Shown: positions 2,308 to 14,137 of the stretch, piece by piece
How positions within the stretch are numbered: the first letter of the stretch is position 1
How the letters are laid out: each line of letters starts with the position of its first letter
Assembly (NCBI GenBank): GCA_036729925.1
Contig: DAIMRG010000040.1
Location: 1 to 24,000, forward strand
Source of the DNA: Clostridiales bacterium
Lineage (GTDB): Bacteria; Bacillota; Clostridia; DSM-8532
Reading direction: 5' to 3'
Length of the DNA: 24,000 bases
Notes under the pieces: generated by a model
What the model saw: the letters and a program-made list of their open reading frames with translations, nothing else
Databases searched by the model: none
Told to the model about the DNA's origin: nothing
Position numbers and translations under genes: made by a program

Positions 2308-3018
2308 CTATTCCTCCATATGATCCAGCATCTGCTCATTCAGATTGTCCTTAACAGTCCGCCAGTTTGGGTAGAAGTTGTCCATGTACGCCCTAAAGAT
2401 GTCGTTGTGGCTTTTCTCCAACAAATGCACAAGTTCATGGATAACCACATATTCAAGAGATTCAGGCGTTTTCTTTGCCAATTGTAGATTAAGCCATATT
2501 CTTTTTGCTTTAACATTGCATGTACCCCATTTGGTACGCATGTTTTTTATTTGCCATTCACTTGCTTTTATCCCTACAAGTTTTTCAGATTTTTCAACTA
2601 CCGCGGGAATTGCATTTTTCAATATCTCACGATACCAATTATCCATGACATTGGCACGCTGCTGCGTGGTACTATCCCTGCGAACCTGAAGGATAATCTT
2701 CTGGCCGGAAACAGATACATCATTACGGATATTACTGTGTACCACATCTAAACGGTAACGCCTTCCCCATAGATAATGGCTTTCGCCGCTCATGTACTTG
2801 CGTTCGGTTTGCCTAGGTTGTTCAGCGAACTTTTGCCGCTGCTTTTTAATCCACACAATCCGCGATACGGCAAACATTCTGATTGCATCTTCCGTGGCCG
2901 ACAAGGGGGCAGTTATCCGAACCTTCCCATCAGGAGGAATCACCCTAATATACATATTTTTAATCAGTTTTTTTTCAGCGGTCATCTCAATTCCGTTAAC
3001 TGTTAAATTTATCATCAA
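2308..3018 (-). CDS. DUF45/YgjP-like HExxH zinc metallopeptidase (type I RM-associated)
   Basis: 236-aa ORF with the motif VVIHELVHLLEKSHNDIF (HExxH...H) near the C-terminus and the typical RMRTKWGTC segment. Its start overlaps the hsdR stop (3015-3018), which suggests translational coupling. Confidence 0.8.
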   Translation of the reverse strand: MMINLTVNGIEMTAEKKLIKNMYIRVIPPDGKVRITAPLSATEDAIRMFAVSRIVWIKKQRQKFAEQPRQTERKYMSGESHYLWGRRYRLDVVHSNIRNDVSVSGQKIILQVRRDSTTQQRANVMDNWYREILKNAIPAVVEKSEKLVGIKASEWQIKNMRTKWGTCNVKAKRIWLNLQLAKKTPESLEYVVIHELVHLLEKSHNDIFRAYMDNFYPNWRTVKDNLNEQMLDHMEE

Positions 3019-6000
3019 TATTCACTCTGCCCAATTACTATTTTCATAAGTTCTTTAGCCTTAACTTTATCACCATGCAGAACTGCTTCTACCGCACGCC
3101 GTATCTTACGTTCTTTCACAATATTCCCTCTAAAGCCATCTAACCGCGCATCAAGCACAGCGTTGTGTACGCTTATTGCAATTTCTTCATTACTATCCAG
3201 GTTATCAAAAAGCGCCCGCAGTGCCGCACTCGCCCTTATACTTTCAGGGTATCGTGATGTGCTTTCCGGTTTTCGGATGTCTTTCGCCAGCTCTACAATT
3301 TTCTTGAGGTATTCTTCGTAGTTAATAACCTCATTTTTTCGCTGCTCAATAATTTCTCGCAATAACGCCGACATCTTTTCATAGTATTTAGGATTGCTTT
3401 GTTGTTTTTCAACAATTTCTTTCTGTACATTGTTTTCAATGGTTTCGGCTACAGCTTCTTGCTCCTTCTTTGTTTTTGACGGCATATCTTTCACAGCGTC
3501 AACGCCGCACTCAACAAGAAGCTGCACCAGGGGAATATCGCCGAATGAAGACAATACTCTGCTTGGTTTTGCAGAAAGATAAGTATCTATCAAGTGCCTC
3601 ATATCGGGGTCATATCCCTTCAGATCGATATAATCACCGCTGGCCGCACGCACCACATCACGCACTTTAATGAAATACTGTACTTCTTGATCAAGGGCTT
3701 TAATTTGCTCAGAGGTATATGCATATCTTTCCTTTAATTCACCAGATACCTCTGAAAAAGAACGCATGACTGCAGCAGAGAGCTCATAGAGTTGTTCGCG
3801 TTTTGGCATGTTTTCTTCAAGCTCATCCAAATCAAATGCCTCAGAATTTTTTCCGCAAAAATAATGAATATAGTCAATATCTTCTTTTGGTATTGCGACC
3901 GGCTCACAAAGGGCACGCAGTGCCTCCAGGGCATCTTCTAATTGTTCTTTCGCCTTGTCAATGCGGTTGTTGAGCAGACCCGATACGTCTTCCTGATCAT
4001 AATTGTCAAAGGCTTCGGAGGTATAGTCCTCCACCGCTTTTTCAAGAGAACGGAACAAGTCTTTATAATCGATAATATAGCCGAAATCCTTGTCTTCGCC
4101 ATCCAAGCGATTGACGCGGCAAATTGCCTGAAACAGACCGTGGTCGCGCATGGATTTATCGATGTAGAGATAGGTCGTCGGTGGCGCATCAAAACCGGTC
4201 AGCAACTTATCCACCACAATGAGCAGTTTCATCTGGTCCGGCTGTTCAACAAACTTTTGTTTTACTTCCGCTTCAAAGGTATCCGCATCCTTGTCACCCA
4301 ACATCTTGCGATAGATTTCATATTGTTCGGCGGTTTCGGTTTCACCATCCTCGCCAACAGTTTCCGTTCTCAAATCGCTGGGATTGGGCGAATAGGATGT
4401 TACAATCGCACACTTCTTAAAACCGCTGTCCTGAAAAATCTCATAGTATTTGCAGGCTTGATAGATACTGCCAGCCACCAGCATGGCGTTGCCCCGCCCA
4501 TCCTCACGCAGGCGCGGTTTGGTTTCCATATCAAATATAATATCAGATGCAATGACGCCAAGTCGTGCTTTGGAACTAAATACTTTTTGTAAGTTTCAAA
4601 GCACGACTTGGCGTCATTACTAAATTCTTTTTGTAAGTTTCCCCATCGCTTTTTAAGCCGTGCTTTGGACACATCATTTAGCCCGCGCGTTTTCGACTCG
4701 AACCACGCATCAATTTTTTCCTGCGCAGCAACATCCTGCTCCACTTCGCGTGCCTCATAACGCAGATCAAGAACAACCTTATCCCGCACAGCCTCATCAA
4801 ACTTGTATTTATGGATATAAGGTCCGAAAATTTCCAGACTGGTCAACTTGTCTTTTTTCATCAACGGCGTGCCTGTAAAACCGATAAAGGTGGCACCCGG
4901 CAGGATGATGTTCATTGCTTTATGTAGCCGGCCGGATTGTGTGCGGTGGCACTCATCAACAAATACATAGAAATCGCCTTTGGGTGAAAAATTCTGCGGC
5001 AGCGCGCGCTTTATTTCCCCGATAAAACTCTCGTAGTCACGTTCAGATGCCTCGCCGCCTCGCCTGCCAAATTTATGAATCAGCGAGCACATTAGCGGTG
5101 GGGATGTATCATTGATTTTATTGACTAGATCACATCCACTTTTTGTGCGGACGATCTTTTCGTCCACACCCTTGTAAACCCGTTCGATTTGGGTGTCCAG
5201 CTCGTCGCGGTCGGTCACAACCAAAATCCGGCTGTCCGGTATGTTTTCTTTGACCCACCTACTGAGCCACACCATTGTAAGCGACTTGCCGGAGCCCTGC
5301 GTATGCCAAATAATACCGCCCTCACGCTGCCGGATATAATCCTGTGCTGCCTTGACACCAAAAAACTGGTTGGGGCGACAGGTCTTTTTCGTGCCGCTAT
5401 CGTAGACAATAAAATTATGTAAGATATCAACAAAACGCTCTTTGCTGCAAAGGGAAATCAGGTTTTTATCCAGTTTAATCGGGTATTCTTCATTTCGCTT
5501 TCGAATAGATACGGATGCCTCATCCGTCGCATTTTCATCTTCGCGCCATGAGAGAAAATATTTTTCGGGTGTATCGGTTACGCCGTACCGCATCCCTTCG
5601 GAGTCATTGCCTGCCATGATCAGGCCCACTGTGGCAAAAAACGGCAGGATAAACTCTTTGCGCTGGTTAGTGAGGTTTTGGCGTATCCCTTCGGACATGG
5701 ATACCGTGCTGCGTTTTAGTTCAATCACACCAAAGGCGATGCCGTTGATATAGAGCACTAAATCCGGGCGTTTTGATTGCTTGCCGGTATAGGTAACTTC
5801 CTCGGCTATGTAAAAATCATTCTCAAGGGGCTTGTCCCAATTGATAAAATGAACCGTGTTTGTATGCTGTCCAACACTTTCACTGACTTTTGCACCATAA
5901 CGAAGCAAGGCATAGGTGGCTTTGTTGAGATCGTACAGACTGACCTGCTGATTACCTGCTGTATTGAGAAGCACCCGGAGCGCTCTGTCGATTAGAATAT

Positions 6001-6163
6001 TGGAATATCCCTGTTTTTGTAAAAAACCGCGCAGATATTCCTGCTCGATGTTGGAGTTATCTGGACGGTTGGTAAAATCACCGAGATAAATATATCCCAG
6101 CTCATTCACAAAGAGTTTAATGATCCGCTCCTGTATCTTTTTCTCTCTTTCACCGACACTCAT
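3015..6163 (-). pseudogene. hsdR: Type I restriction enzyme R subunit (HsdR), split by a 44-bp frameshifting insertion
   Basis: - The upstream ORF (4400-6163) has the N-terminal PD-ExK nuclease motif (PDLVLYINGIAFGVIELKRS), helicase motif I (HTQGSGKSLTM) and motif II (VFVDECHRTQSG).
- The downstream ORF (3015-4529) starts inside the conserved ...DIIFDMETKPRLREDGRGNAMLVAGSIYQACKYYEIF segment and carries the helicase C-terminal half.
- Removing 44 nt leaves 3105 nt, which is 1035 codons, and brings the two frames into register. Confidence 0.85.
4551..4640. repeat. Quasi-palindromic duplication inside hsdR (22-bp inverted pair plus 22-bp direct pair)
   Basis: - aatgacgccaagtcgtgctttg (4551-4572) is the exact reverse complement of caaagcacgacttggcgtcatt (4597-4618).
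- actaaatactttttgtaagttt (4575-4596) is repeated as actaaattctttttgtaagttt (4619-4640), matching at 21 of 22 positions. Confidence 0.9.
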
Positions 6164-11580: not shown

Positions 11581-11609
11581 TTGACATGCATATATTCAGC
11601 AGGTATAAT
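11581..11609 (+). promoter_or_regulatory. Consensus sigma-A/sigma-70 promoter
   Basis: TTGACA (11581-11586), a 17-nt spacer and TATAAT (11604-11609), preceded by an AT-rich UP-like tract. It lies 34 nt upstream of ATG 11643. Confidence 0.7.
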
Positions 11610-11642
11610 TATTGTACAAAATAAATTAATGGGGTTGATAAC

Positions 11643-12281
11643 ATGTCGATTGAAGCACAGGATAAGCCAAAAGTACAACAAATCTACGTTCCAGCAGCGA
11701 AAGTGGAAATGTTTAATAGGGCTAAAGAAATCTTTAACGAGTCGTTATCTGCCGTGATTGTAAATCATTTAAGTGAATTGGTGGAAAAACGAGAAGCCGA
11801 ACTCATTGGAATGTCAGAACATATCATTGAGATAGGAACTTGGCCACCAAACTATTATAAGTACGGGCAAAAGAATAGCCGAAAAAGATTCTTTGGTAAG
11901 TTGATTCATAAAGCAGATAAAACCCTTTCTGCAGGAACAAATGCTTTTGCTGTTGACTATGCCATCTACGCCACAAAAGGTAATAACTTTCTATTGTATT
12001 ATCATATCCACTATCTCGGAATAGGTGGAAATATGGAAGAGAGTACATACTCAGCCGCTGACTACAAGGTCGTCAAATTTTTGTTCGACGAGGAAAAGCA
12101 AGCCATTAACGAAGATATCCTAGAAGTTGACTGGAGCAATCTGACAGGCATCCCATCATATTATGAGTCCGGAAATTCTATGCCAATTTCATTCCCAAAA
12201 AAAATGACGGTTCCTTTACAATTCTTAGAAGAGGCTTTAGATATATTGGATAAAGTTCCCATTGAGGATTTAGATATCTAA
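11643..12281 (+). CDS. Hypothetical protein, EXLDI-family-like (C-terminus ...PIEDLDI)
   Basis: 212-aa ORF. The N-terminus (IYVPAAKVEMFNRAKEIFNESLSAVIVNHLSELVEKRE) and the terminal E-x-L-D-I match my recollection of the uncharacterised EXLDI protein family. I could not run a search. Confidence 0.5.
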   Translation: MSIEAQDKPKVQQIYVPAAKVEMFNRAKEIFNESLSAVIVNHLSELVEKREAELIGMSEHIIEIGTWPPNYYKYGQKNSRKRFFGKLIHKADKTLSAGTNAFAVDYAIYATKGNNFLLYYHIHYLGIGGNMEESTYSAADYKVVKFLFDEEKQAINEDILEVDWSNLTGIPSYYESGNSMPISFPKKMTVPLQFLEEALDILDKVPIEDLDI

Positions 12282-12294
12282 GGAGGTATATGAA

Positions 12295-12477
12295 ATGGGT
12301 TTAGTCGGCTTATTGGCAAACGTAGCAAAAGGGGCCGCGATTGGTATTGCTACAATAACGGCACTACCAATTGCAGGAACAGTTGGCACAATCACAGCCA
12401 CTGGTGCAACAATATCCTCTGTAGTTGGAGGAGTTGCCGGAGCATACGACTACGTCACCGAAGAGAACAAAAAATAA
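12295..12477 (+). CDS. Small hydrophobic Gly/Ala/Thr-rich (glycine-zipper-like) membrane peptide
   Basis: 60-aa ORF with a strong RBS (aaggagg) 7 nt upstream, 13 nt after the preceding stop. Sequence: MGLVGLLANVAKGAAIGIATITALPIAGTVGTITATGATISSVVGGVAGAYDYVTEENKK. It is hydrophobic with a charged tail, and a terminator follows. Confidence 0.6.
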   Translation: MGLVGLLANVAKGAAIGIATITALPIAGTVGTITATGATISSVVGGVAGAYDYVTEENKK

Positions 12478-12484
12478 CACGAGA

Positions 12485-12520
12485 AAGAGGCACTGATTCT
12501 TTGCAGTAGCCTCTTTTTTT
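12485..12520 (+). terminator. Intrinsic terminator of the EXLDI-peptide operon
   Basis: An imperfect stem aagaggcactg / cagtagcctctt is followed by a T7 run (12514-12520). Confidence 0.55.
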
Positions 12521-12781: not shown

Positions 12782-13765
12782 TTAATCCTGGATTATAATC
12801 AAATCACTGTATTCACTCATAGAACCTATTTCTATTTCAACGGGTTCTAATTTTTCAACGGGTTTAAATGGTATAAATACTATTCTATATTCAAGTTGAT
12901 ACCAAAAATCAAATAACTTAGTTCCAAAGACATTCAACGGTCCCGGCGGAGGATTAAGCGGGTCTATATATAATATTGGAACCCCAAATCCATGACCTTT
13001 TAGTGTCAAAATTCTTCTTACCGATTCAACCACGTCACTCACAAACCGTTCTGGATTTCGTACAACAAGACAAGCATTGCTCTTAAAATCTCGGAATAAT
13101 CTCACGTCAGCCTCTTTTGCCATACAGTAAAGATAATAGTCTGATGAAGACTTTAAACATAGCCTTATATTTCCAATAGGCTTTAGTGGTGTTTTTTGTT
13201 CATCCTGTATAATTCTCACTCTATTAGGATGCAAAGCCAACTCCCGCCTTAGTTCATCATCTCGTTGGGCCTTATTCAAACTACTGTCTGTATACGCTGA
13301 TGCAGGTTTTATCAATATTGTCCCATTTCGATACATTTTAGCAAGATGTTCTTTATCTCCATACTTAACAAAATAGGGAGCGCGGGGAAAGGTTATCGTT
13401 TTCATTTTGCTAATTACGGTTTCAATATTGGGAAAAGAAATTAACTTTCCTAAATCCTGTGCAATTTCTGGCGGAGGAAACTGGCTTCCCTTTAAGGAAA
13501 GTTCCGTTTGTATTTCAGTAATAATTGGCGACCAGAACTTACTCCTTTCATCTGGTAATCTTAAAGAAATTTTGCCGTCTTGGTTTATCGTAATAAAGTT
13601 ATACAAAACATTTAAGCACCGCTGAAATAGTTCTTCCTTGGGTAAATACTCCATATATCTATCATTCAGATAATTCATTCGCCATAAATCTGAATTTCTA
13701 ATTTTTTGCATAAACATTCCCCCGTAACCAAAAGGTTTAAATCTACTTAATCTTATATCAGCCAT
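12782..13765 (-). CDS. Hypothetical protein, DUF2971-like pattern
   Basis: 327-aa ORF. Several segments recall DUF2971-type proteins by eye: YFVKYGDKEHLAKMYRNGTILIKPASAYTD...RDDEL, YYLYCMAKEADVRLFRDF and FGTKLFDFWYQLEYRIVF. A better start may be ATG 13717 or 13711, preceded by gggggaa. Confidence 0.45.
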   Translation of the reverse strand: MADIRLSRFKPFGYGGMFMQKIRNSDLWRMNYLNDRYMEYLPKEELFQRCLNVLYNFITINQDGKISLRLPDERSKFWSPIITEIQTELSLKGSQFPPPEIAQDLGKLISFPNIETVISKMKTITFPRAPYFVKYGDKEHLAKMYRNGTILIKPASAYTDSSLNKAQRDDELRRELALHPNRVRIIQDEQKTPLKPIGNIRLCLKSSSDYYLYCMAKEADVRLFRDFKSNACLVVRNPERFVSDVVESVRRILTLKGHGFGVPILYIDPLNPPPGPLNVFGTKLFDFWYQLEYRIVFIPFKPVEKLEPVEIEIGSMSEYSDLIIIQD

Positions 13766-13855: not shown

Positions 13856-14137
13856 TTAGCGAAGCCTAAAAATATCCACTGTCCTACTTATCTCGTCCTC
13901 AATTATATGGTTTTGGAAATCCCCCCCATGTACGGTGGTACTTCGAATGTCATATCGACGCAAAACTTCCGTCATATTTTGCAGCCCATTCATACGAACA
14001 GCCTCCTTTGCCAGATTATTTGGCTTCATGCCTAAATCTGCTAACCAATCTTTGATTCTGCTCAATAGCACTTTTGTAACCGGGCGGTCTGTTTTGCATC
14101 CAAATAGGGCGTCTAGGCCACACCATAATTGCGACAA
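13856..14137 (-). pseudogene. HEPN-domain (Rx4H) protein, N-terminally decayed
   Basis: 93-aa frame with LDALFG...LRRYDIRSTTVHGG, which is the R-x4-H HEPN signature in the usual C-terminal position. The listed start is TTG, directly after an in-frame TGA. The same frame and a neighbouring frame stay protein-like up to about 14340 (IGLPNHFIDALDL..., FSKIHLLYDTPRRLLNKEANQLSKQEINWIAQPLY). Confidence 0.45.

Follow-up and report, generated by a model that had tools for sequence, protein, structure and literature searches.

A rare two-gene cassette pairs a ribbon-helix-helix-like EXLDI protein with a 60-residue predicted membrane peptide and is probably a conflict or defense module

In a 24,000-nucleotide stretch of DNA from a Clostridiales bacterium (contig DAIMRG010000040.1 of assembly GCA_036729925.1; we will call the whole stretch the window), a compact cassette encodes a 212-amino-acid protein and a 60-amino-acid peptide. 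We will call the two open reading frames (ORFs) ORF-A and ORF-B. ORF-A combines an N-terminal domain that resembles the ribbon-helix-helix (RHH) fold with an enlarged domain of the EXLDI type; ORF-B is a predicted membrane peptide. We propose that the cassette is probably an undescribed conflict or defense module, because relatives of the peptide occur inside CRISPR immune-signaling operons. More specifically, and tentatively, we favor an autoregulated module that is similar to toxin-antitoxin (TA) or abortive-infection (Abi) systems and whose effector would be a membrane-acting peptide. The pairing of ORF-A with the peptide, the long-form RHH-EXLDI architecture of ORF-A, and the peptide family all appear to be undescribed.

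The link to CRISPR systems comes from the distribution of the peptide. (L numbers denote loci and P numbers denote ORF-A relatives.) A profile built from the four cassette peptides matched 75 clusters from several phyla, all of them unnamed or annotated as "hypothetical"; the taxa include Photobacterium, Paraburkholderia, Zoogloeaceae, Acidiferrobacter, and Arenimonas. The members share the core ...G[AV]..GVA.VTALP[IV].G.VG[TS]ITA.G..V.S..G...G..D, which no Pfam or NCBIfam model matches. Using the peptide alone, we retrieved 13 loci from GTDB genomes and 27 from metagenomes, and in 39 of these a hidden Markov model (HMM) of the peptide detected the ORF. Only one of the 39 loci (L030) has an EXLDI-like gene, and 17 have accessory genes of type III CRISPR systems (this count took in loci with Csx16, Card1, Cas_NE0113, or Cas1/Cas2). 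Pfam identifies these CRISPR neighbors as Cas_VVA1548/Csx16, the CARF and nuclease domains of Card1, Cas_NE0113, Cas1, and a RAMP protein.

In 10 loci, the stop codon of the peptide gene lies 0-5 nt from the start codon of csx16. For instance, L043 (3207-4479) contains a CRISPR array with 36-nt repeats, the peptide gene, csx16 (whose ATG overlaps the stop codon of the peptide gene), card1, and Cas_NE0113. The peptide is likewise encoded by the first gene of type III accessory operons in L023, L024, L038, L040, L047, L049, L050, L054, and L055. Csx16 is a ring nuclease for cyclic tetra-adenylate (cA4; bioRxiv 10.1101/2024.09.24.614671). Our literature search found no description of the peptide family or of its association with csx16. 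Of the by-products of this analysis, the most interesting is that the peptide gene is coupled to csx16 in type III CRISPR loci. It raises the question of whether a mini-peptide that has no sensor contributes at the membrane to immunity by cyclic oligoadenylates. There are no cas genes in the window; the CRISPR adjacency belongs to the peptide family and not to the window's copy.

The ORF-A protein is far rarer. A word-indexed homology search returned 2 proteins with a single query (one identical, the other 77% identical) and 6 proteins with a profile. We therefore used an exhaustive HMMER search with a profile of the window protein and P0002, which found 26 clusters at E <= 1e-3 among 1.84 billion cluster representatives. 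The long-form clade comprises five clusters, and four of these are accompanied by the peptide. Specifically, the same peptide gene lies downstream in four lineages whose ORF-A proteins are 100, 77, 43, and 33% identical to that of the window. A 60-amino-acid peptide gene lies 14 nt 3' of the 77%-identical relative (contigs L001-L003), and a homologous gene of 57-60 amino acids lies 15 and 21 nt downstream of P0003 (43%) and P0004 (33%), respectively. L030 has the same arrangement of an ORF-A relative and a peptide. The fifth long-form relative, P0005 (29% identity; L016), is the closest relative without a peptide. In L016 (1537-3122), the gene for P0005 overlaps a gene for a 339-amino-acid protein by 4 nt, and lies beside an IS605 TnpB-type gene.

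Because the four diverged lineages maintain the reading frames, the lengths, the ribosome binding sites, and the terminator, we consider both ORFs to be real genes. The ratio of nonsynonymous to synonymous changes between the window and L001 (0.17 for ORF-A and 0.23 for the peptide) indicates purifying selection on both; for more distant pairs, synonymous sites are saturated. Relative to the three other cassette lineages, the peptide is 58-77% identical and its ORF-A partner is 33-78% identical.

Homology between the window and L001 at the DNA level begins at the promoter and stops at the terminator, and the sequences on either side differ from lineage to lineage. In the window, the cassette is 330 nt from a tRNA-Gly(CCC) gene, and a type I restriction-modification (RM) operon lies past the tRNA. 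In L011, the cassette is between Phd/YoeB and Abi_2, with an integrase fragment nearby; in L015, a type ISP RM enzyme is encoded 1.3 kb away; and in L001, the cassette is beside a DDE transposase of an insertion sequence (IS) family, without the window's neighbors. RM, TA, or Abi genes lie within ~1.5 kb in three of the four independent contexts. Comparison of these loci shows that the promoter, the two genes, and the terminator move together as one unit among defense and mobile-element contexts. The viral contigs of IMG/VR contain neither the cassette nor the long-form protein nor the peptide, and tblastn against GenBank phages and PLSDB plasmids also found none of the three, with the caveat that its low-complexity filter may mask the peptide.

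The organization of the cassette is listed in Table 1, and it agrees with what the initial annotation, which was made from the sequence alone, had described: a textbook promoter with every consensus position matched, a 13-nt gap to a 60-amino-acid peptide gene with a strong ribosome binding site, and a terminator after it. An exact TTGACA-17-TATAAT occurs once in the window, as compared to 0.01 times expected from shuffled sequences, and the aligned promoter of L001 is TTGATA-17-TATAAT. The stop codon of ORF-A (TAA, 12279-12281) is followed after 13 nt by the ATG of ORF-B at 12295. The gap is 13-22 nt across the four lineages, and the strong Shine-Dalgarno sequence of the peptide gene is also present in L001, L011, and L015. 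These three loci also have a hairpin at the same place as the window's terminator, with a different sequence in each. (A simple terminator scan overlooked the window's hairpin because it has an 8-nt loop and a bulged stem.) With one promoter, a DNA-binding-like gene first, a short junction, and one terminator, the layout is that of a type II TA operon.

The two copies of GTTGATAA flank the consensus promoter and the 5' untranslated region, and the -35 hexamer is a third copy of TTGAYA. These hexamers are at -73, -62, and -8 relative to the ATG of ORF-A. L001 has GTTGATAT twice and GTTGATAC at the equivalent positions, and it retains three copies of GTTGATA. The GTTGATAA repeats may be an operator for the RHH-like ORF-A protein.

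As the initial annotation reported, the 212-amino-acid protein contains IYVPAAKVEMFNRAKEIFNESLSAVIVNHLSELVEKRE near its N-terminus and ends in IEDLDI. Its assignment to the EXLDI family holds only indirectly. ORF-A matches TIGR04342 at just 13.9 bits (E = 0.052; residues 77-121 align to positions 13-55 of the 124 in the profile), as compared to a curated cutoff of 32 bits, and P0002 scores 12.1 bits. But 19 of the 25 aligned relatives of ORF-A match TIGR04342 at E <= 0.01 (best 3.7e-20), and two of them, P0006 (40.4 bits) and P0025 (32.7 bits), exceed the cutoff end to end. Judging from these intermediates, ORF-A is a member of the EXLDI superfamily, though not of the curated family, and we consider the homology to be secure. 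The family was said to have no assigned function; this agrees with our literature search, which found no functional study.

ORF-A is larger than a single EXLDI domain, with an N-terminal extension of ~55 amino acids and internal insertions. TIGR04342 covers only the C-terminal domain of the relatives (~residues 51-162 in short forms). In the alignment of relatives, the insertions of the long forms are a WPPNYYKY loop and residues ~145-190. L210 and D211 are almost invariant among the 25 relatives, and E208 is conserved in most of them. A Foldseek search with the ORF-A model found nothing in PDB or BFVD at E <= 1e-3, and searches of PHROGs with both cassette products gave only hits with E > 0.1.

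The N-terminal domain has the family consensus KTIYV..D...F.RA..LAGESLS.VI..L...V. AlphaFold2 models it as a coil followed by a helix (residues 18-31), a turn, and a second helix (35-54). The topology is probably ribbon-helix-helix, with a strand that would form only in the dimer. Consistent with this, hhalign places the domain in register with CopG over 39 columns, with a probability of 44.5% and a pairwise E = 2e-4, and single relatives of ORF-A match Pfam's CcdA (2e-4) and RHH_1 (0.059).

AlphaFold2 predicts that the peptide forms two helices that are hinged at an invariant L-P-x-x-G (mean confidence, pLDDT, of 83). A, G, T, V, I, and L account for 46 of its 60 residues, its grand average of hydropathy is 0.81, and its tail is YDYVTEENKK. 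Its best Kyte-Doolittle 19-residue window is 1.74 (the family median is 2.02), which is above the usual threshold of 1.6. The initial impression of a glycine zipper is reflected in 13 overlapping [GAS]xxx[GAS] motifs; strict GxxxG pairs are isolated (G13-G17 and G45-G49), there is no strict GxxxGxxxG triple in the peptide, and Pfam's Gly-zipper models have no significant match to it (best 0.81).

Short-form relatives of ORF-A are found without the peptide. None of the short-form loci L009, L010, L057, L058, L060, or L062 has a downstream gene for a hydrophobic peptide, and in the loci that we retrieved, pairing with the peptide is confined to the rare long-form clade. Thus, the small downstream ORF that was expected to be conserved is present in every peptide-bearing long-form lineage and not in EXLDI relatives generally. 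The phage-like contig L010 has genes for protein-primed PolB and amidase/LysM, with a short RHH-EXLDI gene at 1364-1888. About 600 nt downstream (2469-2639), L010 also encodes a stand-alone 56-amino-acid copy of the RHH-like N-terminal domain (HMM E = 3e-9), so this domain also exists as an independent small protein. L060 is a phage-like contig with genes for PolA, a PD-(D/E)XK protein, and a single-stranded-DNA-binding protein. In L062/L063, which is a prophage, the RHH-EXLDI gene lies between integrase-proximal genes and a holin/amidase lysis cassette. The relatives in L009, L057, and L058 are on other short contigs. In the variable genome of Parvimonas micra, a 123-amino-acid EXLDI gene adjoins the TnpW gene of a transposon (PMC11076991). 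Because of these phage, prophage, and transposon contexts, we view EXLDI proteins as cargo of mobile elements. The E-x-L-D-[IV] tail is maintained with or without the peptide, so we infer that the tail's partner is not the peptide.

In L060/L061 (1-3615), P0015 (212 amino acids, with a different insertion) is directly 3' of a giant NTPase of the STAND/AAA_16/NPHP3_N type (1843-2033 amino acids). This neighborhood is possibly another defense or counter-defense context for EXLDI relatives.

The cassette resembles several known systems in part. Like type II TA systems with RHH antitoxins (CcdAB, ParDE, and RelBE), it is compact and mobile, it has one strong promoter, and it lies in islands of defense genes and mobile elements; its upstream gene is RHH-like and is separated by a short gap from a more conserved downstream partner. 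In contrast to those systems, its downstream product is a 60-amino-acid predicted membrane peptide instead of a soluble enzyme or a poison of gyrase or the ribosome; ORF-A has a large beta-rich domain instead of a short disordered toxin-binding tail; and neither product matches a known toxin or antitoxin family at the sequence level. The peptide is similar in size (~30-60 amino acids) to Hok, TisB, and GhoT, from type I and type V TA systems, which likewise are predicted to form helices that insert into the membrane and in some cases are linked to phage defense. But those toxins are under the control of antisense RNA or of an RNase (GhoS) rather than a protein with an RHH domain, they are much more hydrophobic, and they have no sequence similarity to the peptide.

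As for EXLDI proteins themselves, ORF-A shares with TIGR04342 the E-x-L-D-[IV] end, a beta-rich core (K..F.G..L ... Y.T.KG..L.Y) followed by a helix, and the association with mobile elements, whereas the RHH-like N-terminal domain (which the model does not cover), the two clade-specific insertions, and the conserved peptide partner set it apart. Type III CRISPR systems have established links to the membrane (bioRxiv 10.1101/270033), and homologs of the peptide are in cA4-type operons next to the array, which is reminiscent of membrane components such as Cam1, Csx23, CorA, and CARF-TM. In effectors of the Cam1/Csx23/CorA type, a CARF or SAVED-type sensor domain is part of the protein, whereas the peptide has none. 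Finally, like the Aca autorepressors, ORF-A is a small DNA-binding-type protein that shares its transcript and a near-consensus promoter with a payload; unlike them, it is upstream of the payload rather than downstream and has an additional conserved domain.

We can now describe the TA-like or Abi-like module that we favor. ORF-A would dimerize through its RHH-like domain and shut down the very strong promoter, for which the GTTGATAA repeats are possible binding sites. Its enlarged EXLDI-type domain, with the insertions that only long forms have, would have a controlling or sensing role and would hold the peptide inactive. The peptide would enter the cytoplasmic membrane as a helical hairpin and oligomerize via its small-xxx-small faces. 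If control failed, as when synthesis stops or ORF-A is removed because of infection or loss of the element, then the peptide would perturb or depolarize the membrane. The disordered E-x-L-D-I tail is more likely to mediate self-interaction, or to serve a host factor as a signal for docking or degradation, than to be a binding site for the peptide.

This proposal is motivated by the layout of the cassette, which fits the classic order of an upstream DNA-binding antitoxin and a downstream toxin. Toxins are usually more conserved than their antitoxins, and we counted the higher conservation of the peptide relative to ORF-A in the proposal's favor. We did the same for the movement of the cassette as a block, the purifying selection on both genes, the RHH-like domain, the two-helix prediction and above-threshold Kyte-Doolittle score of the peptide, the type III accessory loci, and the defense-rich contexts of the cassette. 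If the proposal is correct, then at ~0.9 kb, the cassette would be among the smallest protein-controlled membrane-effector systems. It would also represent a new TA family and give a testable role to the EXLDI proteins on phages, prophages, and transposons.

Other observations weigh against a TA-like or Abi-like module. Some homologs of the peptide (L018/L031, L020/L022, and L045) are solitary: their neighbors are housekeeping genes, and no partner is apparent. Such partnerless genes would be surprising for a lethal toxin, and they disfavor an obligate toxin that needs a protein antitoxin. The Shine-Dalgarno sequence of the peptide gene is stronger than that of ORF-A, which, like the consensus promoter, would favor an abundant peptide. 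The peptide is weakly hydrophobic by the Wimley-White octanol scale, with a best window of -0.97 kcal/mol (control sequences of TisB and GhoT gave -5.4 and -15.9). Neither ORF-A nor the peptide matches Pfam or PADLOC, and NCBIfam gives only the sub-threshold EXLDI hit to ORF-A. Assigning the N-terminal domain to the RHH superfamily is probable rather than proven, and it is statistically insecure: hhalign gave no alignment of note to CcdA or ParD, and profile searches of the PDB with the whole protein or the N-terminal domain were non-significant (E >= 0.1 for the domain). A search for operators in the AT-rich promoter region found only non-decisive repeats. Toxicity, neutralization, and phage defense are predicted roles for the cassette. 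The initial annotation had arrived at a TA or Abi module as well; the operon anatomy and the defense-rich contexts make this plausible, while the occurrence of the peptide alone elsewhere, its stronger Shine-Dalgarno sequence, and the lack of a match to any known model weaken it.

These last three features favor a non-lethal alternative, in which the peptide is constitutive, abundant, and similar to superinfection-exclusion peptides, and acts at the membrane, for example by a block to DNA entry or to a membrane step of the invader, while ORF-A is an RHH autoregulator that caps its expression. A consensus promoter together with a perfect Shine-Dalgarno sequence suggests high steady-state expression, the partnerless homologs imply that the peptide is tolerated by itself, and the cassette's contexts are rich in defense genes. 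Also, short-form EXLDI relatives are at lysogeny or moron positions of prophages and on phage-like contigs, which are typical sites for exclusion genes. However, the cassette and the peptide are on no IMG/VR viral contig or GenBank phage; a plain repressor would not need the extra domain and insertions of ORF-A, which occur with the peptide in four of five long-form clusters; and the coupling to csx16 and card1 better suits an effector or adaptor than a block to entry. We consider exclusion to be somewhat unlikely, yet a serious competitor to the module that we favor. A further idea is a little less probable: the peptide may be a minimal membrane effector or adaptor that is shared across phyla by different immune modules, as the translationally coupled lead gene of csx16-card1-NE0113 cyclic-oligoadenylate operons in Betaproteobacteria-like genomes and under long-form RHH-EXLDI control in Firmicute-like mobile islands. 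If so, this would give the EXLDI domain its first function, as a sensor of infection or stress that gates a membrane effector. It is rather unlikely that the cassette plays no part in genetic conflict. In that case, ORF-A would be a transcription factor dedicated to an ordinary small protein of the membrane or of a stress response, the peptide would act as a structural or modulatory membrane subunit, and the proximity to defense genes would reflect hitch-hiking in variable regions. Many small Gly/Ala-rich membrane proteins are uncharacterized, no defense model matches the cassette, and solitary syntenic copies of the peptide gene lie between housekeeping genes in Burkholderiales metagenome-assembled genomes (L020/L022) and in one from Acidaminobacter (L018). 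But in several lineages the peptide gene is repeatedly the translationally coupled first gene of csx16-card1-NE0113 operons, the cassette shifts as a discrete unit among RM, TA, Abi, and IS contexts, and members of the ORF-A clade are extremely scarce and patchily distributed, as is typical of mobile accessory genes. If the peptide is harmless, then the cassette is just a rare regulator with a small membrane protein.

We doubt that ORF-A is an Aca-like regulator of a strong promoter with interchangeable payloads, of which the peptide (possibly an anti-defense protein) would be one. The downstream genes of RHH-EXLDI genes on phage and prophage contigs are varied, the EXLDI gene of P. micra is beside a TnpW gene, and P0005 precedes the 339-amino-acid gene of L016, which has a precomputed AcrVA2-like flag (PF26125). 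But our own hmmscan against Pfam gave no such match, the peptide exceeds ORF-A in conservation and, by far, in breadth of distribution, and its copies in CRISPR loci are encoded by the immune locus of the host and not by an invader. It is highly improbable that the peptide is a secreted Gly-rich peptide like the class II bacteriocins or microcins, with ORF-A as its immunity or regulatory protein. The peptide is rich in Gly and Ala, and its GGVAGAYDYV stretch is, we presume, loosely similar to Gly-rich bacteriocins such as colicin V. But homologs of the peptide are found inside CRISPR operons, and the charge is acidic to neutral (pI of 5.9 and 4.2). We rejected a class II bacteriocin because the peptide lacks a double-glycine leader, the window and the cassette loci encode no C39-peptidase ABC exporter, and no bacteriocin family of Pfam or NCBIfam matches.

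Table 1. Features of the cassette. Positions are those of the window. Confidence of the AlphaFold2 (AF2) models is given as pLDDT (predicted local distance difference test) and pTM (predicted template modeling score).
Feature	Position	Strand	Description
Upstream copy of the 8-nt direct repeat GTTGATAA	11569..11576	+	Candidate operator half-site (putative)
Promoter, sigma-70-type TTGACA-17-TATAAT	11581..11609	+	12/12 consensus matches; -35 at 11581-11586, -10 at 11604-11609
Second copy of GTTGATAA	11634..11641	+	2 nt 5' of the ORF-A start codon; candidate operator (putative)
ORF-A, 212 aa	11643..12281	+	RHH-like N-domain, enlarged EXLDI-type domain, EDLDI tail; AF2 pLDDT 83.9, pTM 0.76
RHH-like segment, residues ~12-55	11676..11807	+	Strand QIYVP, helix 18-31, ESLS turn, helix 35-54
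Beta-rich EXLDI-type domain, residues 57-212	11811..12278	+	Clade-specific insertions; C-terminal helix 192-203
C-terminal E-D-L-D-I motif (family E-x-L-D-[IV])	12264..12278	+	Predicted to be disordered; pLDDT < 50 at residues 208-212
Shine-Dalgarno sequence AAGGAGG of the peptide gene	12280..12286	+	Overlaps the ORF-A stop codon; GGAGG-ATG spacing of 8 nt
ORF-B, 60-aa peptide	12295..12477	+	Two predicted helices, 2-27 and 29-59; hinge L24-P25-x-A27-G28; small-xxx-small ladder; acidic tail
Intrinsic terminator, hairpin and U-run	12481..12520	+	-18.9 kcal/mol; z = -5.4 vs. shuffles

Among the neighbors that the initial annotation had pointed to, the tRNA and the RM genes are as described, while the HEPN-like and DUF2971-like genes have no match in Pfam, NCBIfam, or PADLOC. 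The ORF that had been called HEPN-like (93 amino acids, 13856-14137, minus strand) does contain an R-x4-H string, RSTTVH, and it looks truncated. The gene that had been called DUF2971-like (327 amino acids, 12782-13765, minus strand) converges on the cassette, and genes with helix-turn-helix and HD domains lie further on. The 327-amino-acid gene is maintained beside the cassette in all window-type contigs and is missing from the other cassette lineages. We considered whether it might be a relative of the Abi_2 gene that has the same position in L011, but on comparison the two are unrelated.

The window's hsdR (3015-6163, minus strand) is split into two overlapping ORFs of 504 and 587 amino acids. 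In L005 and L006, hsdR is intact, as one gene of 1034 amino acids, and a 44-bp indel separates these from the window's version. The type I RM system beside the cassette may be restriction-defective in this strain.

The contexts of the solitary peptides may not all be plain housekeeping. In L033/L034 (~680-2815), a proteobacterial homolog of the peptide adjoins genes that, by eye, look umuD-like and umuC-like (SOS translesion polymerase), and in L025, another adjoins a gene with an NYN domain (Pfam).

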